Shown one piece after another: positions 25,583-54,991 of a stretch of DNA of 64,000 bases. Numbering within the stretch: the first letter of the stretch is position 1; each line of letters opens with the position of its first letter. This DNA comes from Takakia lepidozioides (taxonomy: Eukaryota > Plantae > Bryophyta), in contig CM060731.1 of assembly GCA_030704615.1 (NCBI GenBank), forward strand, positions 26,040,001-26,104,000, given 5' to 3'. The notes below the pieces were generated by a model. The model was not told the origin of the DNA, ran no database searches, and worked only from the letters and a program-made list of their open reading frames with translations. A program made the translations under genes and the position numbers.

Positions 25583-26783
25583 CTGCCAATGTTGCTTCTG
25601 AACGCAGAGTTCACCGTCTGATGGTGCTTCTGAATGCAGAGTGTATTAGAGCGAAGTTTTTGGCTGCATAGAAGACGTCCTTACACACAATTGCAGGTAT
25701 CGGTCCTGCTTGCAGATCTCCTAACGTGGATTGGCACATCAAAGAAATGTGTCCCCGTGCGAACCAAGCGGATGGTGACAGAGTGCCCAACTGCGGAGTG
25801 CATAATGTCAGCCCTAATGAAAGAATCCAACTGTTATTTCGCAGGTGCCCAACAATGCATTGGTTGAGAGGTTGACTGACAGAGCCGCCATTTTGCTGTC
25901 ATGTCAGAGAGTCCAGAAGAGATGCCCATTTCCATTCAATTTTAACGGCACCTGCACTGCTGTACAACTGTACATACTTGACATTCCTCTGAAACATCCC
26001 AAAAGATATTACCCAATAATGAACTTTTTCGGATGAGAGGAGTTTATACCCGAACGAATTTTGGATGGAAGAGGAACTAATGATTTCCGCAGATATTCAT
26101 AACGGTTAGATGGGCACGTGTTCGCCATGCATGTGGAATGAGCATGTGGCGAACAGGTTGTTCCGAGCGATCATCTTGGCGTTGAAGGCCTTGCGGTGAC
26201 CCTCCCCTAACCCTCTTTTTTTCCTCTTTTCCTTATTGTCCTTGCAACCCTGGATTCTGCAGAGACGGTAACCCCACTCCGAGGGAGAAGCAAGCGTCGA
26301 ATAACACTTTATTTCACATCAAACAAGCAAAGGGCACGCGCTAAGGAGAGGATGAGGAAGGCGAGACGGGAACTTAGATTGGGTGAAGAAACCTCCGGCG
26401 GAGATGAGAACGAAGGGCAAAACAGGATTTTGCAACCACAGTTTGGAGATGAAGGTCTTGAAGTGATCCCGGAGGCGACCGAAGAGCAACCTCCAATAGA
26501 AGGGGGGGAGGACGAGGAAGTGAGCTGGGCTCGGGAGGAAGCACTGCGAGTGGAGAACCAGGTCTCGAAAGAGCAGGGAGGAGAGATGGACGCGGAAACT
26601 CTGCCGTCCGCCCTTGTTTCACACCACCAGGACCTCCTCGGAAGCATGCTACCTCCTGACCCCATGGAAAAGTTGAATGCCTCAGGAGCATCATCAAGTG
26701 CAAAGAAGAAACCGGAGGTGGCTATGAACTGTCTTTTGCCTTCTCTGTTTTTGTCTTTTTCATGCTAAACATAGAGGTCGACT

Positions 26784-27015
26784 TCAATCTTGCGTTGACG
26801 TTGACGCGAGGCTGATTTTGATGCCTCTTTTGTTCACTCCAAGAGGCCGAATTCTCGTACAATGAACTGCAAGGTAGGGAAAGTTGATTATTTGAAGCTC
26901 CCAGAAGAACCCTGCGTCAACGCAAAGCATATATTGGGTTCAAAAGAAATTCCGGGATGCCTTTCAGACTAAGCTACATCCCCATCAATCAACCTTGCGT
27001 CAACGCAAGGTTGAT
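26784..27015. repeat. Three copy-A palindromes in cargo intron 1
   Basis: 26784-26815, 26908-26930 and 26988-27015 (ATCAACCTTGCGT-CA-ACGCAAGGTTGAT, perfect 13-bp arms). Confidence 0.9.
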
Positions 27016-28887
27016 CCATGGGAGCTCAATCTGTCACTCACAGGATATTCATTCTTTGCAGAGGAAAAAAAAAAGGAAATCCGTCGGGGAAGATTCGGCA
27101 GTGTCAGAAGGTGATTTTGAGGAAGAGTCATTGGAGGGCCACTATGAAGACAAGGCCGAGGAGATTATGGGTGGGCAAAAAGTGAACTCGTCGAAGGTGA
27201 TTCTGTCGATGGAGGTTCCCGGCGGAAACCTTGTCATTCCGCTTTGCAGGATGATCTCCATGCCCGCTGTTCGACCAGCATTGAGGAATGACATCACGAA
27301 GTTGAAGAACGACTTTGTTCACGGCTATGTCAAGGGATCTACAGTGTTCTACGTATCCACTATGAACACGAAAGGAGAGGAGTGTCTTGTAACAGAGGAC
27401 ATTGAGCAAAGTTGGGATGCATGCTGGCGGGGATGTAAACAGGGAGTTGAGTTTAAGCTGTCCAAAAAGGCCTCCACAAAAGCATTCATGGGAAAGATGT
27501 TTTTTGTCTGGGATGGGAACACAGACTGCTTGCCTGGATGGATTACATTTCAAGCATGCACACGGACGACATCAATGGCACTGGAGCGTGGTTTCCATGG
27601 TTCTCGACACAAAAGGACGTGTCACGCAGCTCCTTACAGCCATGCACGACATAAACAAGTAAGTTGCCAACATTGTGTCTGTTCCGAGTTCCCACAATTT
27701 GGAATCCACTTATGAGTTGAAGGTTTTTCCAGGTCCAATGAAACCTCTCATGTGACGACCAATCTCTACCACACTCTATTCCGCATCCAGAAGATAGGGC
27801 TGATGCCATTGGATTCATTCACGACGTGCTCAGTCCAGCAGATGAAGAGGTGTGCCGACAAGAAGACAAGCACATGGTACAGCTTGACAAGAGAGGCTTT
27901 TCTTGACTACATGTACACTGTAAGCTTCTTGACACCTGTTTGCTTATTGTTACTGCAGATTTTGTCAAGAAACGCCAGTGTTTGATTCTTTTACCTGTTA
28001 TGAATGCAGCAAGAAATAGCAGAAACTGGTTTGAAGGCGAAAGCTGAGTACTATGATTCCCACACAGAAGAGCAGAGGTCTGAAACTGGGCTTGAGGACA
28101 TGATGAAATTCGAGATGAACAATCAAAGGAAGAACCTCATGAGTGCATTCGACAAACAAATCCGGATAGCAGATCCAGGTCTTGGCACGGAATTTCTAGA
28201 GTAGGTGAAAGCACATTATGACAAGTATGGCTCTAAGCCAGAAATGACTCAAGAGAAACTACATCGCCTTTCCATTTCAATGTGGACAATGCAACCAAAA
28301 TCAGGTGGTTGGAGATCTGGAATTCGGATCCACTTGTGAGAGACACCAACATGTTCCCAACTCCTGAGAGGGACTCGAAGACACAAGCAATAAAAGTTGT
28401 TAGCGACCACACATTCGACCAGTGGCTACACAAAGCCACATTCTGGAGCCAGGTATGGTTTCCACAAAACCATTTTCAGAAAGTAGTGTTGCTACTTAAT
28501 GTCTCGCGAATTCTTATGAGTTTTCTTGTTGCAGTTAGAAAAACGTGCAGTCGCTGCACTTGGGGAGACCATGGCAGACTACAAAATCCAGATGGCTTGC
28601 CCCCGGATCACACTGGAGGCCTACATCAGGAGATGGAAGCTCGCTGTCTGGAACAACTGCTTCTTCAGGGAGTTTGAGAAAGACAAAGGAATCTCCAGGT
28701 CGTACGAATTCAAAAACCAGTACAACAGCGAGCAAGCAATGAAACGAGTGTTGTACAGGTGTGACCTCCTTGAAACAAATTTGGTACTTGAAGGGCATGT
28801 TTCTGCATTCTTGTGTTGTACTTTCTATATAGCAGCTCGAATTTGCAGGTTATGAGGGAGCTCTGAGGGCTCTGGATGTGCAATCGA

Positions 28888-29512
28888 GCAACATTGCGTT
28901 AACGCAAGCTTGTATCCCGTTGTTTTGGTTTCAATTTCCTATAGGTGGGGTCTCCCATAATGCCATTTTTCTCCATGTGAAAGGTGAAAAACTGACAGGA
29001 AAATCAGCATTGCGTCAACGCAAGGTTGATGAAGGGCCAGGCTATGTAGGTTTACCTGGGTTTTTGGGCTATAATTTGCGGTCATTTCCAGTTTCAATGC
29101 TGCCAAGATGAACATAAAGTCTGTTTGGAGTCTGTTTGAAATGCTATTTAGAGCTTATTTTGTACCATCAAACAGACTTGCGTTGACGCAACGTTGTTTG
29201 GTGGTATGGATTGCTAGAAATGTCCCGCAGCAATACCCCAATTTCCATACAATTGTAGGAAAGTTGTGGTTGTCAGATACCATGGACATGTGTTTCAACA
29301 GAGGAAATCAACATTACGCCAACGCAATGTTGAATATCCGTACCAGTAGATATTCGAAAGGATGTTTTCAAGCACTGTTTTCCATTTCCACTGTAAATGA
29401 AAACAACCTTGCGTTGAAGCAATGTTGAATTGCCCTTGTTAAAGAACAGTTCTCCGCATTTTGTGTTTCCCATTTCTGCTCGATTCAACATTGCGTCAAC
29501 GCAAGGTTGATT
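28888..29512. repeat. Six copy-A palindromes in the large cargo intron
   Basis: TCAAC(A/C)TTGCGT(CA/TG/TA)ACGCAA(G/T)GTTGA variants at 28888, 29003, 29173, 29307, 29404 and 29483. Confidence 0.92.
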
Positions 29513-32184
29513 CGGGACTGCAAAGGTGATTTCTGCGTGTTGCTTTCCTGCATTTCAATATCCTTTTCCTGATGTGTGATCTGTTTCATTTTCAGATCGA
29601 ATGACTGCCTGGATTTTGTGTGTGTGATTCAGGTACATGTATCATGTCCTCATACCGGGAAAGTACCTTAGCGATGACCCAGACTTCATCTACTCATGGG
29701 CTGACCCCTCCAATGACAAGACAATGTACACGGCTGGTATTGCCAGAGACTGGAGCAGGGCGCACTTCAGAGACTATGGGTGGTACCTCGACCTGCCAAA
29801 ACAAGATACACCATTCGATGAAGTTGTTTTGAGAAACCTGAACGACAACGCCACAGCAATTGCCCCACTGGCTGACAAAGACATTCAGGATAGAATCATT
29901 TCTGCTCTGGCTGCAAAAGAGCCCGAGAAATCTGCTACTCCAAAATGAAAGGGGAAGATTGTCGGGGATCCAAAGGGGAAGGGGGAAAAGTGCAGCTCCT
30001 CAAGGACAGGACCGTCAGAGGTCCCTCAAAGACAGCCTTCTCCAACTAGGAGGGATAGGAGAACATCAAAGTCGAGGGAGCAGCCTTTCGAGGCGAGAGA
30101 ACATCCCTCCAGGGTTTTGGGACAGTTCAAGGTGCTGAATGAAAGTTTTCTTGCAATGATGGAGTCCAGGAAGTCCACATTCAAAGGGGTGCCCTCGAAA
30201 TCATGGGACATGCTTGTTTCGTTCCTCACTCAGGTAAGCACATATGTCTTAACTATTGTATGAGTGATTTTGGTTTGACCACTTGTTATGACTTGTCCAG
30301 GGTTTGATCTCGTGCTGGATTTGGATTTGGCTTCTTACACTGTCTCCTGTTTTTTGCTGAAGGTCACAAAAAGTCCGGATTGGGTGAAATGGAGTTCAGC
30401 AGGCATACGCGACTGACCTTGTGGTGCTGGACATTCCTGACGGTTTTCCTGTCCCTGATGTGTTCCCTTCCAATTCGACCCCGACTTGGAACAAATCGGA
30501 TTCTCGTTACTGGCAGTGGGCTTTCTCATTCAGCAACAAATTCTTTTCTGACTCGGGGGCTCTTCTTCTCATGCAGTCAAAGGACACGTCGGCACGAAGA
30601 ACTCTTTTTCAGCTACATGAAAGCTTCCGGGTTTCGTGTCATCAAAACTTGGACATGCATCAATACTCTGCCTCTTACGAAGGGCGAGTTTCCGGGGCAG
30701 AAAGTGAGTTGGTTCCTTTCAATTAAAGTTTCATGGTTTTTCAGTAAATCAAAAGGTAGGTTGTGTCTTTTGCCTCATGCTCTCTTCGTGATTATTGACA
30801 GACTCGAGTGTTCGAAGCTTTGTGCCTGGTGAGGCGGAAGGACACTCTTCCTCCTGGTGTTGCTGAGTTCCAGTTGAGAGACCTTGCAGCTCACATTGAC
30901 CCCACCTGCGAGCCTGTGGAGGATGATGTTATCTTCAATTACGTCGACTCGGTCGAACTATGAAAAGGTCGATTGGTGTCCCTTGGAGAGGTGCACGGGA
31001 GAAATCTCCAGCTTTCATGCAGACTTTGGTGGAGACATGCAGCCGTCATGGTGGTCGAGTGGTTGACTTGTCTATGGGCACAGGTGGGGCCCTTCACATT
31101 GTGTTTGACATATGGGCAGTGACCTTAGGGAAGCCCTGTTTTAATTTCTCGTTCGTCTTGGATTTGCAGGAGCATCTTTTCATGCTTGCAAGAGCGCCGG
31201 AAGGCACTTCTTTGGCATGGAGGTTGATACGGAGCTCTTCTCAAGCGAGCTTCGTCAGCTTGAGTCCGGCACTACTTCTTCCCCATCCACAGGGACTTCT
31301 AGAGGAGCCCGAAGCGCCTGAGGAGGATCTCGACGTGGACTCCGATTTTGAGTGTGAGTAAGTTCGGCTGTAGTCGTGCAAAAATGTTGCATTTACTTGT
31401 GTCATTCCCGTTTGAGATGGTTGCTTACATTGTCTATATCTGGATGTTAACATCTACCACCATTCCTCTTCTTGCTTTCCAGAGTTCGGCACCAGTCATC
31501 GAATCAGCAGACACCTTTCGGTTTCCAAGGATACTACATGTCCCCGAGTCCCCCTAGAGCTTACCGCTTGCCGGTTTACGCTGAAGCTTGCGCACAGGTG
31601 TTATCCCAACAATCAATGTATTCGCATTTACATGAAGGTCGTGGAAAAAAAAAACGTCGCGGATGTGCTGCTGTATTTGATAGATGATATTGCTGTAAAC
31701 TCTGGAAGTGGTTCCTCTGAAACCTCCAATAGTTCTTGAGTTCAAGTACCGAGGCTCAATAAATTGTGTTTTGGTTTTGCTTCCATCCCCAAACTGTTTT
31801 TCAAGTTCATTGCGCGTTCCCGTAAGTACAGTTAGGGATTGCCTGGGGTAGGTCTTCGGAATCCGGAATTGAAAAATGTTTGTGGGTTGGAATGAATGTA
31901 CTGCTTTGCAAAACAAAAGGGTTTGCTTTTAATATTCAGTTCTCTAGTGGGCGATCTCCTCATTCCAAAGGGATGCCCTCAATCATAAACCATCCGCAAA
32001 CCTGCCATTGTTCTCGACTAGAAAGAATATTCATGTGGGGGCAATGAAGAGGGATAAAAAATAAGGATCCGCGGTAATAGGGGAAGCCAGGGGGAAAGCA
32101 CGGTATTAGGGTCTGAACACGTGGATGCTTGCTTATGTGGCGTGAGCAAAGCCAAGCTCACAGGCTCACGCGCAAGCATCCCGC

Positions 32185-34658
32185 GGGTCCATATCCGCCT
32201 CCATGAGGCCCAAACCTGCAATAGCAGCTCTGCCCAACATCAGTGGCTGAACTCCCGAGTCCAACAAGACCCGCAGTGGCCAGTACCTCTTGCCTGCTGG
32301 TCCACTCAAAAAGAAAATGCCATCATGGTTGTCTAACAAGACAACTCCAGGTGTCACCATGACGCGCTCAAAGGCTGGCCTAGATGGCAGCTCTGTCAAC
32401 CTGGCAGCTACAACTTGCCATGGCGCAGTCGTGGCAGTCTTCACCCTCAAATCCGAGGATCCCTCTGCCACTACACCTTCCACTAACTCCGCAGAAGATG
32501 AAGTGACATCCCCACTCTCACAGAGTATTGCTACTAGTCTGAACACCGCAGCTGGTCTTACCCCCGGCGCTGGGCATCTCCATGCCCATACTTGCCACAA
32601 TGCCCACACTGCAACTGTGCAGGCTGTGCTTCTGCTGGCCCTTTGTCACTTTCTGGGCAATCTTTCTTGACATGGGATCCTCCACATGTCCAACATACCA
32701 CCCCTGGTTGCTGTTGGCCTGCAAAAGAAGCTACTGGCCTCTGCACCTGAGGTCCCCTGTAAGCTCCATGGAATTTGGGTTGGGCAACCTTGCCCCCCTG
32801 ACCACACTGTTGGGCAGTCCCTTGTATCTGTTGGCTGGCAGCTGCACCTCGTGCAGGCATGTCCTAGCCAAATCCAATGGTAACAACTCACTTCTCCACC
32901 ATGTTGAGCTCAATCCGCTCAGCCAGCAGAAACACATCTGCTAATGTGGGTTGGGCCACTTGTAACAGGGTTGCATCCCGCACCCTTCTCCTGAGCTCAT
33001 TGTCCAAAATTCCATACCAGAACTGGACTGCCTGAGCTTCAGTAACTCCTTGGGTCACACTTATCAAGCGCCTCATACGAGTGTAGGCCTCTCGCAAGCT
33101 CTCGCTGGATTTGCGCTGGAAGTCTTGCAAACTTCGCAGCTTCTCTGTCCGTACGCCTTAGTAGTTCGTCCGCAACTCCTGGAAGAACTCCACCACCGGG
33201 TTGAATCTAGGCACATGTGTTGTAGTCGTGGTAGGAGGAGTAGTAGCACCTTTTGAACTGGTACCACCTGCAGAAGTACCAGCACTACTTGTTCCACTAC
33301 TAGTGCTGGCAGTGGGAGATATTGGTGCTGATGCAGCTACTGGTCGCGTCGTGCCTCGAGTAATGGAGACGTAGTCAGGTGACCAATACATCCTCAACTC
33401 CTCAATCTCTGCTTTATGTCCTCGCCTGAACTCATGGTAATCGTCCATAGGCGGGCCTTCCAAATGCTGGAACAGTCCTTTCCACGCCATGAATGGGGTG
33501 AACAGCTCTGGATTACGCATCTGCTGCAAATCACACCAGTTGTCGAACTTTTGGATAAAGTCATCCAGCTTGATTGTGCCAATAGCTCCAAAGTACCTAC
33601 GAGGCCCCTTAGTAGCTCTATACATCTCCTCCATGTCGTCCTACAACAATGGCGAATGAAACTGCACACGTGTTGATGAAGCCTCTGAGTCTGTGTCTGA
33701 CTTTGCACTAGTTGAGGGTGGAGGTGAAGGTGGTTTGAAACGAACACCTCGTCTGGTGAACCCACTCTCACTGCTACTGCCTGTAGCCTTACTCCCCTCA
33801 AAACCCTTGGGTAACTCCGTGATGACACTCACAACCCGCACCTCCCCCACGTGACACTATAAGGCTCTAGTACTAATTCTAATAGTGACATGGGTGAGCA
33901 CCTGTTGCGGATTAAGGGTCATATCCCAGTGGCTAAGGGCACCTGCACCTGCATCCACCGCAAGAACTCCTATGGTTGGCTGGTCATCAACCCAGCCTCA
34001 CCATAGAAGAAACACTGGTGGTCTTGCTAGTCATCACTCCAGCCTCACCACCGATAGCATACTCTAGGATTGACCGGTGATCAAATCCGGCCTAATCCCT
34101 ATGAAAGCAAGCGCCCATACAAAACCAACATGGCGCACAGTCAAGCATGCAAGTGTGAGGGGGATCCAAACACAAAAAATCAAAACATCAACACCCCCAC
34201 ACCAAAATCCATCTGCAGTGCTGATCCTGCAGAATATCCCAGCCCAAAACCCCGGACTGACTGGCCTCCACCAAGAGAGGCTTTGGCAACTACAAGTACA
34301 AAGTAATGAAAATAGTAAAAAAAAAGAGGGGAAGAATAGAGGCCCGACCAAGCAAGATCTAATCCTGATCTATGTTATCAATTGCCAGACTTCTCTCAAA
34401 GTGCCTCGCTCTGCATGATGGTAGGTGGAGGAGGTATATCTATGTCCAGAAACCTGCCACTAACCTTGTCCCAAGCTACAATAGCTCGCTCTAACCAACC
34501 CTCCTCCTCTTTCTGCCAGGTAGAGACAAAGCAATACTTCTCTATCTCCTGCTCACTGAATACTAAAGAAAATAAAGGTAGGGTCTGACAGTCTCTCAAC
34601 TCGAAAGCTTTGAGACGGTTGTGAGTGTCCTCATTGCGAATGACTGCATCTCGTTCAA
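32185..34658 (-). mobile_element. Ty3/gypsy fragment 2: part of putative 5' LTR, gag, CCHC knuckles and aspartic protease, interrupted by copies A and B
   Basis: gag 33850-32880 homologous to 21329-22357; CWTCGGSHVKKDC and CGHCGKYGH; protease VLLDSG; putative LTR end CCGCAACA at 33903, which may continue at 51251-51786. Confidence 0.82.
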
Positions 34659-34874
34659 CAGGGATGCCTCGGCGTGAGCCTGGTCACGTGAGCGCGTGAG
34701 CGCAACTGCGCTCACGCCACGTCACCTTGCGCAAATGCCACGTCACGGGGCTCACTCCACGTCATCACACGTGAAGGCCGCGTCACCACGCGCCCAGAAA
34801 GAAGTGGAGTGTATTCCCGCGGATTGGCACCCTTTACGCGGAAACAAGCTGGACGACATAATAAAAGGCATTGA

Positions 34875-35190
34875 ATAAAGGATGGATGAATGTACAGTTG
34901 GATGATAAACAGATGGATAAGTGTGAAAAATGAATGTAGATGGATGAATGAGGGATGGATAAGAGTAAAATGGATGAATGTATAATGGATGTTGAGCAAT
35001 GACAAAAATTCATGACAGGAAGATGCATGACCAAATCTTTTGACGAATGCACAACGTATATGAAATGAGTGTGGAAGGTTTGTGGGTGGATTAAAGAGTA
35101 CAGAGGATGAATGTACAATGGATGTTGTACAAAGGAAAAAATTCATGAATGGAGCACGCATGAATACACTGTAGATGAATGCACAATGGA
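34875..35190. repeat. TGGATGAATG-type low-complexity repeat near the copy B end
   Basis: Recurrent GGATGAATG/TGAATG units. Confidence 0.65.
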
Positions 35191-37689
35191 TATGAGAAGA
35201 GTCAGGGAGGTTTGTGAGATGGATTCATACATATTGCAATTTAAATGAAAGTTGATTCTGTGATTATTATTTGTTCTAAAGGAACAACTACGGTGGAGGA
35301 AGGGGATTCAACGTTTCCAGATAATATGAAAATGAATATTAAAAGAATACAGTTCAGTCTGACTCAGAGTCAGTACAATGTATCCCCGCTTCCTCTGCAT
35401 CTAAGTCTAAGTATTTTAGAACACCAGATCCACGCTGGATACACCTACGCTGGCCACTAAAAAGTCAGGGGATAGGGACTCGGCCGCGTGAAGTGCCATT
35501 GCTTCGGCATAAACAAGAAGCAGAAAATTGGAAAGGGGGCTGTCGAAAACAGACTCGCCAGAAATGACTGTATCTCCTGAAGATCCACCGCTGCCTTTCC
35601 TAAAAGACAGCCTGAAAAATTATTACTGTAACTTTGATGTTATTGAGAAATTGAGTATGACTCCCAAAGAGGGTTTAGCACTTACTCACATGAAAAGTCG
35701 TTGTCGACCTGCTTATCTTCGGGATCGTCATCATTTCGAATTTGAATCCGATCAGTCTGTGTGCCTGAAGTGGAGCCAGACAAAAGGGGGAGGAGCACTG
35801 TGTTGTAGAGGTCAGAATCACCCTCCATGCCAAAAAGGCTTCTTCCGCCTGCCTTGCATGCATGGTAAGTTGCTCCTGCACCAGACATGAGAACATGAAC
35901 AGTTTGGAGGGGGGGATTTAAGCAGATAAAACTGTTGAAAGAAAACCAATTCGGAAGGGAAAAAACGAACCTGTGGACACAGAAAGATCGACCACCCGTG
36001 CAGAGCGGTGGCTGCATGACTCCAGCAGTATTTGCATGAACGCTGGGGACTTTTCCTTTGCACCTCTCCAAGGAGTGCCATCTGGTCTCTTCAGAGTCTG
36101 ACTGGACTGCATGAAGTTGTACAAAATGTCATCGACATGGGGCTCATAGGGGGGGTTGACGAAACAACCCTGGTCAGAAATCTCAAAGCTGCGGATGGAG
36201 GATGTGTCTTTGAGGTGCGAATCCTCCGCAGGCAGATCGCCGAACATCCTCGTCTGCCAAAGATAGCAGGTTAGTGTGGTAAACACAATCTATAGTGGAA
36301 GTGTGTACATCGGCTATTCAGAACTCAGACACAAAAAAATCATGAATCGGTGATGATCGGTGTCGATCATAAACATTCTACTAGAGTGGAGCTGCAGAGA
36401 AAATTAAAACTCATGATCAAAGCACAAGCAGAAGGGAGACGGCATACCAGCTGACCAGGGAAACCCCCTTTCACAAGGTAGAGGCTGTTCACACAATTCC
36501 ATGTGCGCAAAACTTCAAACCCTGAAGACTTGAGGTATGATGCCAATGCCCGACGACTATCATTGTCACATGACTGAAAAAAGCAGAAGTGTCCTTGCAT
36601 CAGAGAGGAAGTTGTTACAGAACCCGAACACCCAACTCCAGTAGTTGTCCTCGAATTTGTTCCAGCCTGGCGTCTTGCCCTTTGGAAGAACTTCTGGCAG
36701 CCTGGCCATCCGGGATGTCGAGAATGACAATGTCGGCCGCATAAGTTTTTGCACACCGCACACGAAGGTGGGACCTGTGCTCACCTGTAACAGACATGTT
36801 TTTTATAAGAATGATGGCAAGATTGTTTTCAAAGAACGAGACTGAAATACTGCCAACGAAACTTTCAGAGAAAAAGGAAAGAAACTGGAATTCTCACCAG
36901 ATTGAGGAATGAGATTATATTGTCCCAGGTAGGGGATGGCACCCCAGTGTATCCTCTCTTTCGACTCTGCATCATCGAAAGCCAACCCTCATTGACAATT
37001 TTCATCACTCCTGCCGAATCAGAACGGGAAGGGTGTGGCTTGGCATCGAACACGCACTGAAGAGTGCGGGTATATCTTCCAGCAGTAAAGTCCTGCCCAC
37101 TCTCCATCTCCTTTTCATTCTCCTTCCCCTTGTCCTTTTCCTTCTCTTTGGACTTGTCTTTGTCCTTTGGTTTTGCTGGTGAGATGGCTATGACATCAAC
37201 AGCCTTGTCTTTTGGTTTGCGGCCCGCCTTCTTTCCCTTCTGCGGCGTTCCCTGAGCATCAGGCTCCTTGGCAGCCAATGTTGCTATGTTTCGTTATACT
37301 CTTCGTCAGTCAAAGGCGCCCAGCATCTCAGCGTTATTGTTCAAGTATTTCATATGCTGTTCTTGAAAGGTCGTGTGCTCAGGTGGGCAGTCAAGGTACC
37401 ACCCACAGTCTCTGAAGTGAGAAGGACTCCAGTCCTTCAATATCCCTGCAGTATACATGGTTGGATCGTTTGCAGGGTCCGACCACATGTCAAGATAGTC
37501 GGAAATTCCGCTCAGGTGATTTCCTTCCATAAGCACATATTTCGTGTACCTGAAAAAAGGAGATAAATCCCAACCCACAAAAGCGCTCAGTGAGTAAGAT
37601 GCAAGTAGAACAGAATGAAAAAACATAGATTGAAATGGCTCTGAGAACTGCTCCAAGGACCTTTCAGGACCACACTACTGCTCCAGATA

Positions 37690-38411
37690 TGAATGTCGTC
37701 AACGCCATTCAAAACATTCCATTCAATGATACTGTAAATACACCTCAATCCAGGTGAATGCAAATTATCGTTAGGAATGACACAGACATAGAAGTGAATG
37801 TCGTCAACGACATTCACTAATGAAGCCTAATTATTACTTAAATGAAGCAAAATCACAGCGATGGAAATCATAAAATCGAGTAAGGAACCCTCCAGGAAAA
37901 CTCAATGCACATTCATAACGAACATATCACTGAGGACCTCACAACATCACTGTATGTGAATGGCGTCAACGTCATTCACAAAAATACCAAAAAGAAACCA
38001 ATTACTTAGCTCCCAATCCATGTAAATTCAAATTGTTGCTGTTGAATAATATAGACACAGAAGTGAATGTCGTCAACGACATTCACTTTGCATTTCTCAT
38101 AACAGAGCTTATCAAGCCTCCAGATTCCTCGCAAGAGGCAAAAACAATGCAGAACAACTGAATGTCTGCATTGACATTCAGCAAAATGAAGTGAGGAACC
38201 CTCACTGTAACCTCTATGGACATTACAAAAATTTACATAACTCTGAGGACCTCTCACCAACTCCTATGTGAATGTCGTCAACGCCATTCAAGGACATTAT
38301 CAATTCTAATCAGGGACACTATAATTACACCCTTAGATCCTAACCAGGTGAATTCATATACTCGCTTAAGAATGACTCAGACAAAGAAGTGAATGTTGTC
38401 AACGACATTCA
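37690..38411. repeat. Seven copy-B palindromes in the large cargo intron
   Basis: GTGAATGTCGT-CA-ACGACATTCAC variants at 37690, 37794, 37955, 38061 (perfect 13-bp arms), 38158 (altered core), 38268 and 38389. Confidence 0.92.
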
Positions 38412-40273
38412 ATCTGGATCTATGATTGCAATCCTTATGAAGCCACATTTTTTCCCAAAAAAAAACAGTAGAGTTTCAAGTATGACATTGCACCTGTACA
38501 CAACTCGCATCATGGCCCACTCTCCTCCAACCTGACTGTCAAAGTCGTTGGACCGTAAAATGTTACCATCTTTGGAGAACTCCCGGAAAAAACAGTATCT
38601 CCAGGTGAGACCTCTCCACTTCCTTATGTATGCCTCAATGACATTTGGGGAGGGAAACAATCGAAATGTTTAGGTCCTTCAAAGTCTGATCCAGCACAAT
38701 GACGGCGCGCTTTTCGAGCTGCAAATAGTATATTGTCAGAATTGCAAAAAATACTCATCACATACTTGAAGAGAAGAAAACCATGTTTGAATACACACCT
38801 GACTCCAAAATGTAGCCTTGTGGAGCCAGTTATCAAACACCAAATCACTGATTCCTTCCACCTTTGTGCCAGGCTGTATGGTGCTCTTTGGGAACTGATT
38901 CAAGTCCTTTACTGTTTGATCTGAGTTCCATATCTCCAGCCACCTTATTTTTGTTTGTGGGTCGACCATCGATATGGCCAGCCGGTGCAATTTTCCTGCT
39001 GCATCTCCGGATGCACATGCTTGTCATAGTGTGTTTTGATCTGCTGAAGGAACTCAGGACCAAGTCCAGGATCTACTATTCTAAGCTGCTTTCCGAAGGC
39101 GGACATCAATTTGGTTCTTCGCATTTCAAACTCCTTCTTTATTGCAGCTTCCACACCCTTTGATGTCCTTAGTTCTTCTGGTGTAGTGCGGTAATATTCG
39201 GATTTTCCCTTCTCAGCTGCCTCTGCCAGTTCTTGCTGCATTGATTCAAGTAGTGATTAGCTCCGAAGGGACTACAAACATGTATTCGAAAAGTAAACAG
39301 AGTACAGACTCGGGCTTACCGCATACATGTACTCCAAAAACGCCTCTTGTGTCAAAGAATACCAAGTGCCTGCAGCTCTTCCTGTTTCGCACTTCTTGAT
39401 GATATTGGGTGGTAGTACTGTCCGAAAATCATCCAGCTTCATCAGACCAATCCTCTGAATTCGGAATAGTGTGTGAACCAAGCTTGTTGTCACATGCGAT
39501 TCTCTGTCGGTCTGCAAAACATTGGAAACATTGCATTCCTTAACACTGTTTTTTGAGGATTAATAAGACACTACAAAGGGAATGAAATCTCCTGGATGAC
39601 TACTTGTTCACGTCGTGCATAGCTGTAAGAAGCCTAGCGATGTCGTTTCCAGGATCCAAAACCATTGCCTCCACAGCAACATGCTTGTCTTTGTCTTTCG
39701 CATGGTGTTTCTGAATGTATCCCATCTATGCCAGCAATCGGTGGTTGCCGTCCCAGACGTAGAACATGTGGTTGCAGAATTGCTGGGTGTTCTTTCCCAT
39801 CATGAGGCCCAGCTCGAACTCCTCATTGGCATCTTTCCAGCACTCATCCCAGTTATCACTGATCTCTGGAGACACTAATGTGCTTTTTCCCATTTATATC
39901 CGTCAGTGACACATAAAAAACTTGTGCACCAAGTCTATATCCATGCACAAAATCACTCTCCAATTTTGTTGTCATGGGAAAGAGGTGGACGCACAACAGG
40001 CATTGATATCATCCGGCACAGAGGTATGTCCAGACGCCCTCCAGATACGAGCATGTCCCTTATAACCTCCTGAGAGTTTACCTTCTGGAATTACATGAGT
40101 TCTTTCACCTTGTCAAGGTAGTGCACTTCAGATTCATCTGCTTCATTTGTATTCTCTGAGCTTTTTGCGGACTCGTCCCCATCTCCAGATCCTTTCCCCT
40201 CTGATCCTGTAGGCTTCGACCTCACAATTTTCTGCACGATGCCATTCAGTTCTGACTGAGTGATTTGCAAATA

Positions 40274-40897
40274 GTGAATGGCGGTAACGACCATCACTCT
40301 GTCTCAAAGAAACTCACCATGAATGGTGTGAAAGAATTCAGTACAATCTACACAAGCAAAGCTGATACTGCCGTATTCAAAACAAAAGCGAGAGCGATAG
40401 CGAACGGCGTTACCGACAATCACAAAAGATAACGACCTGCCGGATCGGTGTTGTGTAATGACATATATGTGCAACTGATTGGCGGCAACGACATTCAGTA
40501 TAGTTTAGGGCGGACAGTAAGTGCAGATTATTCAGATTGACTCCACTGTGATTATCGTCGCCGGCATGGGAAGAGGAAGGACTGCTTCAAAGGCAATCAG
40601 ACAGACTGTATGGTCTGAACAACGATGATTGGCAAAATGCCGACCCTCACTCTCTCTTTAAACACATAGGTACATAAATCTCATGAGGAGAATCGAATGG
40701 CGTTAACGACGCTCGCAATTCAGTAGTTCCTGCTAAAGAAGGGAAGAGGAAGGACTCCTTGAAAGGCAATCAGACAGACTGTATGATCTGAACACCAGTG
40801 AATGACTGTACCGATAGTCACCAACTCATTGTGCGGTAAACCCTTCGCAGAGGAGTAGAAAACAAATCACCTTTGTGATGGTCGGTAGCGACAATCC
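40274..40897. repeat. Degenerate copy-B palindromes in cargo intron 1, plus a ~53-bp direct duplication
   Basis: Examples: GTGAATGGCGGTAACGACCATCAC (40274), TGATTGGCGGCAACGACATTCA (40476), GAATGGCGTTAACGAC (40695). Duplication 40568-40620 / 40741-40793. Confidence 0.7.
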
Positions 40898-43800
40898 CTG
40901 TCTGGGACATTCCACTCAATCTCTACGCATATCTTCAACAATGAAATGTAAGTTAGATAATACTTACTGGCGCCTTCTTAGGTTTTGAAATTTGATCCCC
41001 TTCTGCAGGTTTCCTCTTCCCTCTCACATCTGCTGGAATTTCTGTCTGCGCTAGGGTTTCTGGACCTTCTCCTGGTTCGGCGTTCCGCGTGCTTCCACCT
41101 CCTTCAGTATCCCTACAAATCATCTCTGCCTCCACAGGCTGGCGCACTCTTATCGCCGACTGTGTCACAGCCGCTGCCTCAGTCTCCGTCTGCTCTTCTG
41201 AATCTGTCTCCGCGTTCACCTGCTGCCTTGGCCCTGTGTTCTCCAACAAACGACGCCTCGTCATTTGCTCTCTTGCTCTGCGTCTCTCTCTAAGGGAAGT
41301 AAAATAAAGAGACTTTCTTCTCTTTCGTATTGTAGAAGGAACCCTCTCCAGCTTGACTACCACTCTCCCTCTAAGCGCGAAAAGTAGAAAAACGCAGTGA
41401 CTCCCGATTTCTTGCGGGATTGCCTGCGTTCTTGCGTGTCTCTAGAAGCATCGGATTCCCTCTCGCGTGACCGTTACACATAGTCGTTCCCTTATTAGTG
41501 CAAATGCCAGCAATTGGTGTACAGCTGTTCGTATTCAGTTATGGATGTCTGACGTGTGTCGCCCAAAAAAAACGGCGTGTTCTTTATTAGAACGGTTTCA
41601 ATATTTAAAAATAACAGCGAATCCCAGAAATCTTGGCGCACAGTCTTACACAAATAAATGTAAATGAACGAGAGTTTGATGACAAATCTTGGAATATCAT
41701 ACACGGTCATCCTTGTTAGCCAAACCCCACATTCGTTTCACATTTGGAACTTTCCAGGTGCGCATGATCATTGGTAGTAGTATAAAGATACATTTACTTA
41801 ATCTGCAATCCCATTCTCAGATCCTGTGGCATGCTTCCAGGAAGTCGGCTTTGTTTTTGGGTTTATTGATGAGGTTCTGGTTAACGGTTTTACAGCTGCC
41901 GACACTGCACCTAGGGATACTCTGACCACTAGGCCCACAAGAAAAGTAATTAAAATGGACGGTTGCATATCTGGAAAGAATAACATAATATGCACAGTCG
42001 TTGTCTGAGCTTCCTCCGTCATATTCTCTGCTCATTCTTGAACTGTGTTCTGGAGACATAAGTAAACTTATTTACACTAGATCTGCGATAGCAAGGTACA
42101 AACGTACGCGAGGAAGAAAGATGGCTTCCTCTGAAGCGGAGTTCTTCTCTGACGACAAACCAATGCCGTTCTCCCAGGAAGTCCATGACAATGGATTTGC
42201 AATTGTTCTGGAACATGTCTTGGCTACCCATTTTCAGCTGCAGAATGGCTCCATCTTTTTGGAGAAAGAGGTGTACGATCTTAAAGGGAAGTTGTTGAAA
42301 TACTCTTTCCAAAACCGTGATGAGACGGCTCATATCAGCCAGTGGAGAGTGCGTCCTGGTCCATACAGAGTACTTGGAGAGCCTCGGCGAAAGTCCCTTG
42401 GGTCATATGTGACGCCCGGGACTGCTGCTTCGGTCGTTGAAGACAAGAGGGAGGTGGTGGTGAAAAAAGAACAGACGTCCTCCACTCCAATTGTTGAGCT
42501 TTCGGATTCTTCCGATGATGACATAAGTAAAATTCCAAATCTAGTCCTTCCTACTGTGGTTGGAGAAGCTGATGAAGAAGAGATTTGTAGTGTCATTCCA
42601 AAATTGCGGGCGATGGGAGGAATGGCTGGATTCAAAAGTGAATTGCGGGGAATTGATTGGGAATCTTTGAAGCAGGTACCTGTGAAGTTCTTGCCGGAGA
42701 CTTTTGATGGCGATATCCTATTCGAGCTGCCTCCTCCTCCGCAAGTTGGAGGTGTAACAATCATGATGCATGGAATGGACAAGAAATACGACGGGCACCC
42801 GTGGTGCAGAACAAAAACATCCAATATTCAGAATGATGACAAGCTTGTTTTTAGGAGGACAGTTTGCAATGGACACCTTAGGTGTGATAATTTGAATTGC
42901 CACTACAACAAATTGCGGCTTGTACATCTCTGTGTTATGACTGCAAATGCAGTCATGGAAGCCATTTACGACTTCCTGACTCTGCAGACGTAAAGACCTA
43001 GTCAGTTGTGACATGGCAAATATGACTCTCCAGGCTGGCTGTCACGTGGCGCCAGAGCAGCTGTGGGGGTAGTCATACATGCTGGCTTTACTAAATGACT
43101 GAACGGACAGTGTAGTCCATGTCAGCGGCTGTGCAAGAGTGGCACGTGCTCGATGCAGGAAATGACACGTGGCAGAGTGTTTAGCTCTCCATGACTGCGA
43201 ACTATGACTACGGGTGTGCTAATCCGGTTGCAACACGTGGCGCGTTGCAGTTTTTACACGTGGTCCATCAGCAGATTGACATGTGTCATGATGGGTGTTT
43301 TTTTGGGGTGTATTGCTATTTTTTTACATATTTGTATTTCTGCCACGTGGTGTAGTACTATTAGGGAGTGAAAATAGATGTAGTCATTATTATGACTATA
43401 ATAGCAGTCATGTACATGTCTATTACAACAATGAAATATAATATATAATACAAAGAGAACAAGGCAGCAAGACATAACTGCAACAAGCTGAGCAAACCAA
43501 GAGATTGCATACCATCTCTATTTACCAATCTATTTATCATTATCATTTTTGTTGCGATCTAAAAATACATTAAATAGTCGCATGTTCTCATGTGAATTAT
43601 TTTGTCTAACTATAACACTTTGAAAAGTGTTCACCCAGAATCTTCTAACTACTCATGTATTCCATCAATCTGCAACCCATCAAAAACGGCTTGCATGGCT
43701 TTAAGAATTACTACAGCAAGGACATTTGTTTGTTTTCCAAGTTCTTGCATAAGATGCACCAACCAATATTGCATTGTGAGACACTCACTCGCTATACTCC

Positions 43801-44811
43801 AAAGCGTTGAGGGAAGGTCACTGAGCAACCTGCCAAGGCGGAAACAATTAAGAGAATTATCTAATACCATATATGAAAAACCAATGCCAGTGTTGTTTAT
43901 GGTAACTTCTATCCCATGTCCTAAACAAACCAAAGCAAAAAGGTTGGTGTGTATTGGCGAAGTCGTCAGATACCTCACAAAGAAACATGCACTAAAAATG
44001 AAACCCAGGATGATAGGAAGGTCACTCACGTTTATACAAAGACATCTTGCCCATTGCCCAACACCCTGCGTCACCCACACTCTATCACTATTCCTTTAGC
44101 TATCCATGCCTCTGCACAAATCAAGCATTCATCCTTGCCTTGCTGCTAGCAGCTGACAATGACAACCTACATTTGTTCTAGGAAACACCCAACTCAGCGT
44201 AGCACACTAGTTCCTATGCTGAATTGCGTCTGCTACTCTCTGAAATGTAGCAGGCATTCACCTTTCTGCCCCGGTTGACCCATCAGTGACTGGGCTCAGA
44301 AGTATTTATTCCACAGCTTCTCCTCATCTCTGTTACCTATTTTTTGACACTTTCCTGTTGTCACATTGGCAGTATCATGTCAAAGTCACTCCAAACTAGA
44401 TTCACTCAACCAGCTAACTTGCAGAATTGAACATGTAAATTTAGGGCCGATTCTGATAAGAGGGAAAAACAGGGTGAAATGTGTTGAAGAAGATGCCTTC
44501 ATTAGCAGTGCCTGATTTTATCACTTGTGCCGCTGCTCCCAGTTGACCATCTACCCATGAAGGTTTCTTGTAGCTATTGATCCACAGGGAATCACAGGTA
44601 ATCTTGTGCTTGAAATCTGGCCTTCTTGGATGAATCTGGACCCACACGAAATCCCTGCTCCTTCAGCTATCCATGCCTCTGCACAAATCATGCATACATC
44701 CTCGCCTTGCTGCTAGCAGCTGACAATGACAGCCTAGAATTGTCAAAGCAAACACTAGCAGGGAAAACAGGGTGAAATATGTTGAAGAAGGTACCTTCAT
44801 CCTTTTCTCCA

Positions 44812-45275
44812 TCATTTGCTTTCAGGTGTCCAAAGCCCCATCCCGCGCTCCTGCTCTGCACACCCTTCAAGCATCGCATTCCACGACACCACATCTAGTT
44901 CAGCCATAGTGTTGAACACTCCCTTGGCATCCTCAATGCTCCCACATTTAGCATACATGGCCACCAGAGCCATGTTCAGGATGACATCTGGTACAATTGC
45001 AAATTTGATGATGTCACCAGGGATCTTTTTGCCCTTTTCCAAGGCTGCAGACGCACTGCAAACGCACGCAAACGTAATGTCGGCGGCCTTCACCCCTTCC
45101 CCATCATTTTCTCAAAGGTTGGAGCCTCCATCCCGCACCCCAGCTGTGCATACCCAGCAAGCATCGCACTCCACGACACCACATCTCGTTCAGCCACAGT
45201 GTTGAACACTCCCTTTGCATCCTCAATGCACCCACAATTGGCGTACATGTCCACCAGGGCAGGGGCAGTGTTCAA
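44812..45275 (-). pseudogene. Captured PLS-class PPR gene fragment
   Basis: ALVDMYANCGCIEDAKGVFNTVAERDVVSWSAMLAGYA and ALVAMYAKCGSIEDAKGVFNTMAELDVVSWNAML; frameshifted. Confidence 0.9.
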
Positions 45276-46099
45276 AAGGACATGTGGTAATTTGACAGGC
45301 ATTCACCTCCTAACTTGGCTATTCCCAACCCATCCTGCCATTGGCAAGAGATTCCACAGAAACTGATAGTTGTCTGTTTGACTGTATAACTATGTATCTC
45401 TTGCTTTCTTACAGCTTGTACTGTGACACGCGTAATGCTCTTGTTGTGTTGAATCATTTCACGCCTTCAGGTTTCAGAACAAACATTACCGTCTTTCTTT
45501 ATCAGACATGTGCACCAAGACAGAATCTCACCAAAAGATTGTTGGTGTTCAACAGTACCATACATGAAGATAACTAGCACCAAAAGGGCATATGAAGCTT
45601 ATTCTGCTCTCCATTGGTATTAACTTGCACCAGGACTTTCAATGGCTGTCTTCCAGTCCACCCACGGCCCGCTGTAAATGGCTTGCAACCTACAGATTTT
45701 CAAGAGAGCTGATTACCATGACAATTTCAAAACTGGCTTTACAAACCTAATAATTCAAGCATAATCAACATTCACGCTAAGGAAGCTTTACAAGCATCGT
45801 GTTGCGAGTAAAGCCTTGGCAATGTCACCAGGAAATCCCTGGCTGAATGGATGACACTGAAATAATGGAGCTTGAAATCCGGCCCTCTTGGACGAATTTG
45901 GGCCCACACTCTATCCCTGCTCCTTCAGCTATCTATGCCTCTGCACAAAATCCTTCAGCTATCTATGCATACATCCTTGCCTTCCTGCTAGCAGCTGACA
46001 ATGACAGCCTAGAATTGTTCCAGCAAACACCCCCAACCCTACTTATCAACGAGCAATGAGCTAACTTACAAAATTCAATATGCATCTCAGGGCGTCTGA

Positions 46100-46995
46100 T
46101 GAGAGGGCAAAACATGTTGAAATAGGTCGAAGAAGAAGATGCCCTCACCACACTGTCCTTGACCTTGTGTCATGACCCATGGAGGATTTGACCTTGTGTG
46201 TGATGCTTGTGTCTGTAGTCAGGTAATGTCGGATTGGTCAATGAGAACCTGCACCACGGTGCAGCTGAGCAGGCAGACTTTGAAACACGGTCTGCTAAGA
46301 CCAAGCTGACTCTCCCAAGAACCTTGTAAACATCAGGAAGAATATCAAATCATGGTACTAACAGGAGCCAACAACCCACATTTGCAGGATGGACAAAATT
46401 CTGCACATCGTACATTAAAAAAAACCACACCTTGCGATTGCGATCGCACCCTCGTGAAGGATCTTAAAAAAACTCATGCCAGCTCTGCTCCATGATTCAA
46501 ATTCATGAGAGGGAAAAATAGGCTGAACTAGGTCGAAGAAGAAGGTGCCCTCACCACATTGTCCTCGACCTTGTGTCATGACCCATGGAGGATTTGACTG
46601 AACATGAACCCAAGATGACCTCTAGTGTGTGCTGCTTGTGTCTGTAGTTAGGTAATGTCGGATTGGTCAGTGAGAACCACCACGGTGCAGCTGAGTGGGC
46701 AGAGATTGAAACACGACCTACTAAGACCAAGCTAACTCTCCCAAGAACCTTGTAAACATCAGGAAGAATACCAAATCATGGTACTAATAGGAGAGCCAAC
46801 CCACATTTGCAGGATGGACAAACTTCTTCACATCGTACATTAAGAAAAAGCCACACCTTGCGATTGCGGTTGTCCCACCATCGTGAAGGATATTTTAGAA
46901 ACTCATGCCAGCTCTGCTCCGTGCTGTAAAATCAGGGCCGAGCGGGTAGAGATTGAAACATGGCCTGCTAAGACGAAGCTGACTCTCCCAAGAAC
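46100..46995. repeat. ~400-bp tandem duplication plus a partial third copy inside the CACTA
   Basis: 46120-46495 matches 46530-46920; a fragment recurs at 46945-46995. Confidence 0.85.
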
Positions 46996-47237
46996 GGCGG
47001 GCTCCCAGCCGAAACCTCCTCGCACACATACCCTAGCGTTTCTAAGGTTGCTTGCTCCAGATGCGAAGGTTGATCCAACTGCGGGCCTCCCATGCATGTT
47101 TGCCCTCTCTCCCGCTCGCTCGCTCTAAGTCCCAACCCTCTCTCTCTCTCCCTCCCGCTTGCTCTAAGTCTGTTCACGCTACTGTGATGGGCAACTTTTT
47201 AAGTTTTTTAACCTTTTTGTAAACCCTAAAAGCCCCT

Positions 47238-47452
47238 TTTTTGATTTTTTTTTTTTTTTTTTTCTCTTAAAGGAAACCACAAGCCCTTGAGGAGGGGGAA
47301 AATTCACCTGCCTTCATTTATGGGCCATAAGACCTACAGGACGATCAACGTCAAGACATACCGTCTCGAACAATCCCACACACGGGATAAGGGCAGCGGG
47401 TTTGAACCCCAAACCACAAGGGCGACACACTGTGCACTTACCAGCCGATGTG
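47238..47452 (-). mobile_element. tRNA-derived SINE inside the CACTA
   Basis: Homologous to 14535-14705; B-box GGTTCAAACC and poly-A tail on the minus strand. Confidence 0.78.
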
Positions 47453-50400
47453 ATTTTTTTTAAATCTTTGTTTTTTTTGGGTTTTTTTAAATTCATTCTA
47501 GTGGTAAGAGTCTCCGTTTTTTTAACATATAAATACTCATATAATATATATATATAACCAGAAAAGCATGTGTCGACACGTGTAGTCATATAGTGATTCA
47601 TCCATGTGATGATCTGGCATAACGCATTAGAGTGAGAGTCATGAAGTCATATGTCTGTCTTGCAATATGCACACGTCATTCTAGTGTAGCCATGACCGTG
47701 ACTGGTAGTCATATCTGCCATGCCAATATTCGTGGTCAAACATGTTTGACCTGTGTTGCGTAGAGTCCGAAGCCATGCAGTCGCATATACGCCTTCTCCA
47801 GACCTGCATTATGACTTCAAAAGCATTTTACGACTGCAAATGGCATTTCTGCCACAAATCTGTCATGACTGCGCACCCATGGGAGTCATAAAAGCCGCAA
47901 TCTGTTATAGTGTGCAGACACTTTCTTCAGTCTGGGGTTCATAATCAAAGCGAATGGGAGGGTCTGGCGGAAAATCCATTTCAGCCTGGGACTGCCCCTC
48001 CACCGGCAAACACTTTCGTCTGCAAATTCTGCAAACTTGTGCCATCCTGCTTGGCGCTCTGCGGAGCAAGAATGTACTATGTTGTCCACCGTTTGAAAAC
48101 AATGACGATAGCTTGTGTGCATTTTGGATTCCATAACCATCCTGTTTCGAAGGGGGATTACAGGGAGAGTGTTGAGACAGTATCGAGGTTGATCAAACAA
48201 GAGTTCGGGAGAAACCCATCCGCAACAACATCTGCAATTGCTCTTGGCGCAAGCAAGTCCTTCTTGGAAAGCCATATTTTGAGTGAATGGGATTTTGTGG
48301 GGACTAAACTTGACGGTGCAGCATTGGACCTGGTCATGGATCATTTCTTCACTTTAAGTTCACCTAACATTCGGCATCAGATGAATGCATTGAGGATGGG
48401 CTCTGGGATCAGAGGCTACATAGACAATATTTTGGAATTGAAACGAGTGAGCAAGTACGATTACATCCAGGACAATGTATTCCCAGGTCAAGGTGCCATC
48501 AAGTTTTTCTTTTCAAAATGTCGACGGGGGAGGGCAGGGTGGGGTTAGCCTCGTGAAGCGGATGCAGAAGACTGGGGACTTGCAGAACTGTTTTCTTATG
48601 TTTGATCATGTGAAACGAGTGAAGGATTGGACGACAATGGCTTGTCATGTCTACGATCCAGTGTACCAACGAGTTATGACAATTGCAGTTTGTGACATGC
48701 AATCTGAGGATACGGAATCCCAGAAGCTCATGTGGAATTCCCTGATACGTGTCATGGGCTGCCATGGGCTGCCATCTCCAAATTTCGTAGGTTTCATGGC
48801 GGATAGTGCTCAAGCAAATTTCAATGCTGTTCGTATTGTCTTCGGATCGGGCGACCCAAAAGTGCCTATGCCAGGAAGAGAGCGTACATGTCTATTCCAT
48901 TGGACACAATCTCTGGAAAAACATACAAAGTCGGACATCAAACCAGAGATGCAGACTCAGCACCGTAAATTGTGCAAAGAGTACAAAGATGCTAGAACAA
49001 TGAAGGAGGCGGACACTTTGTTCCATACAATTCGTGCCTGGTGGTTTCTCTTCTGGAGCTGCATCACTTGAGAGTATGAGAGCATTGGAAGATTGGCTGG
49101 CGTTTTGGCACTTCCGATATAGACAGGGGAGCAGCCATGACAATGGTACGAGGCCTCTATTTCATGCTTTATTCATACATTTGCTTTCCATATTTTTGAC
49201 TCATTGCTTTCTTTATGTTGTTTCCTGTGCACTGTTGTGAAGTGTGGTTATCCTCTTTGCAGAACATGTCCATTGAGGAAATGGCGGACATGCCATCTTG
49301 CAATTTGGCAGAAACTGTGCACAACGCATGGTTGCAGCAGTCTGGGAAACGAGGTCGGGATTTGTATGTGGCAAAAAACAGATGATTGATACGTGCCTTG
49401 CAACAACAAACCCGATAACCGTGATTTCTTACGAGGTGGGGTTGGTGGCAAAGGTCCGGACAAATGGGAGTTGATGTTGCGTGCTGCAAACAGATCTGGG
49501 GATCCAATCAAGATAGCACGGGCGGTGAGCATGTATGCCCAGGGAACGCCACTTGTTTCTAGAGTTCCACATCTTGAAGGGGAGGAGAGATTCGGCTCTT
49601 GTAAGAGGAAATTGAACACTCCACTTGGTTCAGATTCAGATTCCCACAGGGCAGACCGTGATAACTTCTCGAAGTCTCGTGTTCCCCTGCATGATAGCTC
49701 CATGTCCGGAACTTCCATTGTGGAGGAACCTCCAACACGACGGCAAGCTCCAGCATCAAACAATGCCACTGAAATGGTGCAGGAGAGAAACAACCCCCTT
49801 GATGTGCTTGAGTCCGCATGCCCCGACCACGTTTGGCACATAGAACGCACAAGTGTAGGGTCTCGTGTGAAATGTACAGCGATCAGGGCAACTAATTTCG
49901 AGAAGTGCACTTCATCTATATCCAGAGGTGGTGCCCGAACTCCTGCTCCGACTTTCACGGGCTTGATGCGTCCATACGGTCAACCAGAAGCCAAGAACCA
50001 CAAGTTCTGGTTCTGCGCAGATGATTGTGCTAGATGTGTGCATGGAACTGTGCGTCCTTCCGTAGTGATGAAGCCATCTCCTCCAACCGTTTGGCCCGTG
50101 AAGGTGGGAACACATCTCAGCTTTCAAGAGATTGAAATGCTGGAGGAGGCAGGTTTTTCCCTTGCGAGACAACCCCAACTCCATGCATGTGCTACTACTT
50201 CTGTGTCCTCCCGGGTCCCCCCGGCAAATCCTGACTTGTGGCCAACCAAACGAGATGCAAAGCTCGTTCGGCGTTTCCCTCCAACCGCTGGCAAAGTGGA
50301 GTCCGCAAGAATGCTCCAAGCTCGTGTTGGAAGCACCACGGAAGTACCCGATCCAGGATATGGTCGGGTATTCACAATCATCACTTCCACATCTGCTGTT

Positions 50401-54957: not shown

Positions 54958-54991
54958 TTTCTGTCCCAGCGTCTGATGAGTTAGAGTGAAA

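Follow-up and report, generated by a model that had tools for sequence, protein, structure and literature searches.

The introns of a transposon-borne gene in the moss Takakia lepidozioides carry arrays of long palindromes, which raises the question of what these palindromes are for and whether their type follows the lineage of the protein encoded around them. A sequence-only reading of the locus had held that two copies of this cargo gene, A and B, use palindromes with a common core and different arms in equivalent introns, that protein and site co-diverge per family with new motifs spreading by tandem duplication, and that this parallels motif evolution in VANDAL transposons. We followed up these claims in the 64,000-nucleotide stretch of DNA that holds both copies (hereafter the window) and in related loci. 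The features needed below are as follows, with positions counted from the first letter of the window.

34659 to 51250, no strand: element B, multi-copy DNA transposon assigned as Mutator-like, with a 9-bp target duplication and a degenerate 21-bp terminal inverted repeat
35690 to 41300, minus strand: B cargo gene with approximate limits, disrupted by stops and frameshifts (from translation and tblastn with the full-length homolog P0164)
37550 to 38493, minus strand: GT..AG intron of the B cargo gene, with seven palindromes (37689, 37794, 37956, 38063, 38158, 38268, 38389) in three tandem units
40256 to 40968, minus strand: B cargo gene, intron 1, limits read by eye and approximate, with six degenerate B sites within 40274-40898
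42120 to 50640, plus strand: B transposase gene, divergent from the cargo gene, with D..D..CxxH..E-type motifs (by eye) and a SWIM-like finger, split by a CACTA-type insertion
42901 to 47912, no strand: CACTA-type insertion with CACTA..TAGTG ends and a 3-bp duplication, TGC
34669 to 34720, no strand: subterminal GGCGTGAGC repeats and a palindrome at the left end of B, a second motif class and candidate transposase sites
51158 to 51240, no strand: the GGCGTGAGC repeats again, with palindromes, in the subterminal part of the right end of B
26340 to 31360, plus strand: A cargo gene, limits approximate, broken (from translation and alignment to P0164)
26725 to 27045, plus strand: intron 1 of A, limits approximate, where A-type sites occur at 26907 and 26990
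28759 to 29632, plus strand: A intron equivalent to that of B, with six A-type palindromes (28889, 29005, 29173, 29309, 29404, 29486)
22760 to 25570, minus strand: A transposase gene, divergent from the A cargo gene, C-terminus cut

Elements A and B and the palindromes of their cargo introns

Contigs from four public runs were compared with positions 34400-43000 and 47700-56000. The empty site is covered by one contig, in which both flanks overlap by 9 bases; this sets the limits of element B at 34659-51250, between target duplications at 34650-34658 and 51251-51259 (9 bp, one mismatch); in a single run (X1), 34,324 contigs match 34400-43000, indicative of a multi-copy element. A target duplication of 9-11 bp is expected of the Mutator (MULE) superfamily, and the 9 bp of element B lie within this range. 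Pfam gave no MULE domain match in the transposase at E 0.1 and a weak SWIM match (E 0.004, under the curated cut-off), and the assignment of B as Mutator-like is made on the duplication length together with transposase motifs read by eye. A Sola1 identity was considered and rejected, given that the duplication is 9 bp as against 4 bp in Sola1-1_Ec32; positions 5-30 of the Sola1 profile (PMC5751038 supplement) were also unlike the first-Asp region of the B transposase by eye. The CACTA-type insertion is absent from other B copies, with loose contig ends at 42900 in three runs, and PPR-like gene fragments lie within it near 44700-45300. The divergent layout of B recurs in element A, for which a search found no ends; A is flanked by two gag-like retroelement remnants (21113-22567 and 32570-34028), which are 71% alike and in opposite orientation. 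Further along the window, a complex tandem repeat region with a 107-bp period occupies 58595-61100.

The B motif is a 24-bp palindrome, GTGAATGTCGT-NN-ACGACATTCAC, present seven times in a 944-nt intron of the cargo gene. Six of these sites have at most three mismatches to GTGAATGTCGTCAACGACATTCAC (37689, 37794, 37956, 38063, 38268 and 38389, spanning 37689-38412), for which 100 shuffles gave an expectation of 0, and the seventh, at 38158, is weaker. As the sequence-only reading had described, the sites are paired (spacing 105, 107 and 121 bp) within a unit present in three tandem copies whose starts lie ~267 and ~312 bp apart; the output of Tandem Repeats Finder for the 64-kb window has no entry for this array. 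In one contig, from a run whose RNA origin is a guess, the 944 nt of the intron are precisely skipped, with intron-type ends. A palindromic profile trained only on the seven sites of this intron and applied at a threshold of at least 12 bits found 13 sites in the whole window, namely the seven training sites and six in intron 1 (40274, 40400, 40475, 40693, 40798 and 40875). The latter score 12-25 bits, as compared with 0.15 matches per shuffled window, so that the degenerate versions claimed for intron 1 are indeed there.

The corresponding A motif is CAAC(A/C)TTGCGT-NN-ACGCAA(T/G)GTTG. A profile built from the six sites of the A intron has 10 matches in the window, of which eight lie in the A gene and the other two, both weak, outside it at 11989 and 34126. 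The two introns are equivalent, as had been proposed, since 28759-29632 in A and 37550-38493 in B split the same Arg codon (TAC AG/G TAC). The A and B half-sites, CAAC(A/C)TTGCGT and GTGAATGTCGT, agree at 5 of 11 positions, and the proposed common core was likewise recovered, with CGTCAACG occurring 12 times in the window against 0.53 expected and every occurrence lying within the A and B cargo genes. The cargo proteins are 56% identical over 401 aligned residues and are sisters on the cargo protein tree (support 88/96), and their motif profiles do not cross-match: element B holds no A-profile match and element A no B-profile match. Once its sites are masked, the A intron neither aligns with the B intron nor contains a repeated spacer. 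The claim that new motifs spread by tandem duplication thus holds for what is visible in the B intron and finds no counterpart in that of A.

A third array, at 54993-55285, comprises five 24-bp palindromes of the same geometry (CGGAAATGCGG-NN-CCGCATTTCCG, spacing 53 and 110 bp). It adjoins a very high-copy repeat, its spacer differs between copies, and comparison with P0164 detected no cargo remnant near it.

Domains of the cargo protein

Both cargo genes of the window are broken, and both align to a full-length homolog of 1147 aa, P0164, from the moss Ceratodon purpureus; the fern Adiantum nelumboides supplied a further named homolog. The architecture consists of an N-terminal domain with a predicted ParB/Srx fold, a helical middle and a C-terminal N6/N4-methyltransferase domain. 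In B the ParB/Srx-fold exon lies at ~39603-40150 with the motif WDGNHR, and the methyltransferase-like C-terminus is marked by DIPD near 36720 and VVDLSVSTG near 35975. A HMMER search yielded 341 proteins at E of 0.001 or below, of which 150 were listed, four of these being repetitive false matches. With the A fragment as query, a word-index homolog search gave no match and the ESM Atlas no lead; PDB sequence searches returned weak rows only, and a viral sequence collection gave one weak locus which was not upheld.

A model of the N-terminal domain built from 69 homologs (pLDDT 88) had leading Foldseek and VIA matches that were all Noc, PadC, ParB, KorB, Srx (sulfiredoxin) or SerK-type proteins. 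The Foldseek E values were 0.008-0.05, none being below 0.001, and the top VIA match, KorB, had a Z of 7.8 and an rmsd of 2.5 over 90 aligned residues. The scores are modest, and the predicted fold is that of the ParB/Srx superfamily; Pfam gives no ParB domain name in any of the 69 homologs, only two weak DndB rows. Residues D162-G-N-H-R166, which contain the G-x-x-R nucleotide motif of this superfamily, are invariant in 18 of 18 aligned homologs, which were chosen for that motif. The nucleotide motif of CTP-gated ParB is GERR, in place of which the cargo has DGNHR.

The helical middle (P0164 366-745) was modelled as all-helical with a pLDDT of 75, and fold searches with this model gave neither a helix-turn-helix nor any other clear match. 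A split helix-turn-helix in exons 3-4 was rejected as unsupported by these searches; the candidate helix is nearly identical in L045/L068 and in relatives carrying another motif, and the folded alignment of the cargo covers exons 5-6 with one relative only. In the ESM Atlas, features of P0164 205-745 match fungal DUF3723 clusters at 0.95-0.96, with 173-193 features in common, while a Pfam hmmscan of P0164 gave no DUF3723 match. DUF3723 is a conserved Starship cargo gene (10.1101/2021.12.13.472469), and the word 'ParB' is absent from the available text of that preprint. On these language-model features, the same module may include the DUF3723 of fungal Starships.

Canonical beta-class methyltransferases carry the motifs (D/N/S)PP(Y/F/W) and F-x-G-x-G. 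P0164 matches PF01555 with 30.4 bits (cut-off 26.7) over residues 903-1119, with motif IV preceding motif I; the window's own cargo fragments, alignable to P0164, give no PF01555 match by themselves. At motif IV both A and B have DIPD where DPPY would be canonical, and LS(V/M)(S/G)TG occurs in B and A, so that the sequences depart from both canonical motifs. The relatives are also non-canonical at motif IV (DTPF, DQPY, DVPF, DIPE, DVPR). Because of this, methyl transfer, and with it catalysis by the cargo's methyltransferase domain, appears doubtful.

Motif type across related loci

A metagenome scan confirmed 305 stretches, and the best 80 loci of these, together with one viral locus, formed 45 non-redundant groups. 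Of 37 representative loci searched de novo, 20 contained an array of at least four 24-bp palindromes, 4 yielded AT-rich satellites or a weak 25-bp family, and the remaining 13 were blank; as a control, 4 of 30 distant segments (143 kb) also contained an array of at least four palindromes. Among the 31 loci with at least 1.5 kb of upstream sequence, 21 have at least three sites of some profile and 10 lack an array of at least three sites of any profile. The 11+2+11 geometry is uniform across loci, and the arms differ (e.g. TCAACTTTCGG, GCTTCTYTCGG, CATGAAGAACC, CTTATGGTCRR, TCCATATGCGT, GGTTTGGGTCG). Most arrays lie within ~1.5 kb upstream of the ParB exon, and those of A, B, L010, L023 and L072 are found in downstream introns, far from the promoter. 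A divergent transposase is present in 7 of the 18 distinct loci with at least 5.9 kb upstream.

Many elements contain two palindrome classes which alternate at near-fixed offsets. The offset is mostly 39-47 bp in L033, L074, L050, L071 and L058, where the arrays lie ~1.5 kb upstream of the ParB exon, 20 bp in L065 and L049, and partly 28-30 or 56 bp in L045, L068 and L078. Several of these values are near whole helical turns, and two proteins, or one protein in two modes, may thus sit on the same face of the DNA. In L072 the outer arm bases differ between the upstream array (5100-5700, GGTACC..) and the intron array (7690-8440, CCTACT..), which may reflect an ongoing change of motif or the insertion of foreign sequence.

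We then placed motif types on an IQ-TREE tree of the 25 cargo rows with a motif label, leaving out unlabelled loci. The 11 motif types required 11 changes on this tree (minimum 10), whereas shuffles needed 17.1 on average and none of 200 came as low; the labels were assigned by the analyst from the same scan, and near-copies inflate the clustering. The profile-by-locus table is near block-diagonal on the protein tree, and cross-matches of at least three sites numbered 0/316 for pairs below 45% protein identity, 9/158, 12/111 and 4/9 in the successive classes above, and 10/15 for pairs above 67%. The motif learned from one locus, L051, was recovered in its clade mates L042 and L061 (support 98/95), in which the de novo search had been blank. 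Furthermore, relatives share motifs where their upstream regions have no alignment over 60 bp (L051/L042/L061, L040/L050 and L040/L033).

An absence of correlation between motif type and cargo lineage, the outcome that the sequence-only reading had named as fatal to it, did not occur. The wider claim of co-divergence per family fares less evenly: the motif tracks the cargo tree, but a distance-based Mantel test was weak (rho 0.25, p 0.051, n=19), the nearest protein was also nearest by motif for only 9 of the 19, and the motif of L078 resembles that of another clade. Moreover, sites and gene are inherited together, and such cis-linkage by itself predicts congruence, which therefore is no proof of co-evolution by binding; nor is the tree signal specific to the cargo, because the transposase is co-inherited.

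Readings of the palindrome arrays and their significance

Identity between the tandem units of B is 90-96% in the sites and 63-68% in the spacers, the apparent conservation of the sites being raised somewhat by choosing them for likeness. The CpGs of the arms are kept in 15 of 16 arms in A and 22 of 26 in B, with an intron CpG o/e of 0.27-0.63. The same motif occurs in two introns ~2 kb apart, and intron 1 and the downstream intron do not align once sites are masked. The two arms vary independently of each other: 152 sites from 28 motif sets show 47 symmetric departures from consensus vs 52.8 in shuffles and equal numbers of sense-strand G-T and A-C mismatches (177 each). The 2-bp centre varies among CG, CA, TG and TA in most motif sets. 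A reading of the sites as RNA hairpins was rejected on this lack of compensatory or G-U excess. The pattern of independent arm conservation fits that expected of half-sites for a protein dimer.

We infer, with a probability of about 0.55, that the cargo protein binds its own family's palindrome as a dimer, spreads in the manner of ParB, and protects or marks the element by means of its methyltransferase fold. The palindromes would then be the likely loading sites of the transposon's own cargo protein, with one subunit per 11-bp arm, and each family would likely recognise its own copies only. After loading, the protein may close as a nucleotide-gated clamp or spread, the way bacterial ParB does from parS. 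Its methyltransferase-fold domain may then act on the element, either by marking it at N6-adenine or N4-cytosine or, in view of the altered catalytic motif, by non-catalytic shielding, and so counter host silencing in the way that VANC does in VANDAL elements. An altered site would become an array by tandem duplication, such as is seen in B, and selection would hold the sites while the spacers drift.

KorB-type ParB proteins are transcription regulators. With KorB as the top VIA match, most related arrays close upstream of the ParB exon and the catalytic motif altered, the cargo might bind the palindromes and do no more than control how its own gene and the divergent transposase are transcribed, its methyltransferase domain being a dead relic. 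We hold this to be unlikely, given that the domain is kept in moss, fern, many other copies and the brown-algal element (PMC12477816, accessible text), and that the downstream-intron arrays of A, B, L010, L023 and L072 are remote from the promoter. It is quite unlikely that the transposase or a host factor binds the palindromes and that the ParB cargo is a mere neighbour. The co-inheritance of transposase and cargo would agree with such a reading, as would the two palindrome classes of several elements, at least one of which may belong to another protein; the ends of B, however, which are the expected place for transposase sites, carry a different repeated motif, the motif of a host factor would not differ from one element family to the next, and red-algal families of an unrelated transposon superfamily have inverted-repeat arrays beside their ParB gene (10.1101/2025.02.11.637652, available text).

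That the arrays are neutral minisatellite units or RNA/ssDNA hairpins, with a family pattern due to shared descent only, we find very unlikely. Tandem units do exist in B, as do short-period arrays in relatives, palindrome families of at least four turn up in 4 of 30 control segments, and the array at 54993-55285 has no cargo beside it. Against this, the sites are conserved above their spacers, keep their CpGs and outlast their flanks, the geometry is uniform across unrelated motifs, neither a compensatory nor a G-U excess is seen, and there is no Rfam match in 26000-42000.

Parts of this arrangement resemble known systems. In Ectocarpus, the accessory gene of Sola1-1_Ec32 encodes a 1104-aa protein with ParB-like and N4C/N6A methyltransferase domains on the strand opposite to the transposase, and this protein was proposed to bind and modify its own element (PMC12477816), the main text of which does not contain the word 'palindrom'. 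The cargo described here is likewise a ParB plus methyltransferase gene divergent from a transposase, the two proteins being likened by domain description; Sola1-1_Ec32 differs in its 4-bp duplication and 282-bp terminal repeats, as compared with the 9-bp duplication and short degenerate terminal repeats of element B. In Plavaka elements of Bostrychia and other red algae, PAG3 (and PAG2) has a ParB-like N-terminal domain, tandem arrays of inverted repeats adjoin the PAG gene across families, self-binding was proposed, and the cassette also occurs in Mutator elements (10.1101/2025.02.11.637652). PAG3, however, is fused to a 2OG oxygenase with the methylase as a separate gene, whereas ParB and methyltransferase are one protein here, and the red-algal arrays lie beside the PAG gene whereas those of A and B lie inside cargo introns; the available text of that preprint contains no test of motif against tree.

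The likeness to VANDAL is one of layout. In Arabidopsis, VANDAL carries an accessory gene of a DNA transposon with family-specific motifs in non-coding parts, spread by tandem repeats, and VANC was shown to bind its 8-9-base target motifs (PMC5735166, text available). An accessory gene with family-specific non-coding motifs is also what A and B have, with 24-bp palindromes in place of 8-9-base words. The A and B cargo further differs from VANC in the domains found, a predicted ParB fold and a methyltransferase fold, and its sites are candidate ones. VANDAL elements are Mutator-like, and the parallel drawn by the sequence-only reading stands for the layout and falls for the protein and the type of motif. 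Bacterial ParB-parS, Noc-NBS and KorB share with the cargo an N-terminal ParB/Srx fold, predicted in our case, and clustered palindromic sites near the gene. The cargo differs from them in having DGNHR rather than GERR, longer sites and a fused methyltransferase fold, in being eukaryotic, spliced and transposon-borne, and in that no helix-turn-helix was found behind its ParB domain.

As far as the available texts go, ParB-methyltransferase cargo in brown algae and inverted-repeat arrays beside ParB cargo in red algae are already published; the measured divergence of sites per family in land-plant Mutator-like elements is new. A search of the openly accessible literature found no paper testing motif against protein lineage for ParB cargo. 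The algal papers proposed that ParB-like accessory proteins bind or modify their own elements, and in their accessible text name no site-protein pairs. Defined 24-bp candidate sites with matching proteins are now available for two sister families of a single genome and for nine more motif types from related loci, which makes a reciprocal binding test straightforward.

A broader and more tentative possibility is that transposon-borne ParB clamps have radiated in seed-free land plants, with a distinct 24-bp parS-like address for every family; the clamp would load in the cargo introns and slide along the element, and the methyltransferase-fold effector that it carries would shield the element from silencing. 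Such a radiation would amount to a natural library of at least 10 orthogonal protein-site pairs, and the problem met by VANC would have been solved independently by a bacterial-type clamp. If self-recognition by the cargo is true, VANDAL would cease to be the only known case of a transposon that recognises and protects itself, a clamp of the ParB type would work in eukaryotic chromatin, and these families would offer orthogonal DNA-targeting pairs together with a view of symmetric change in binding specificity.
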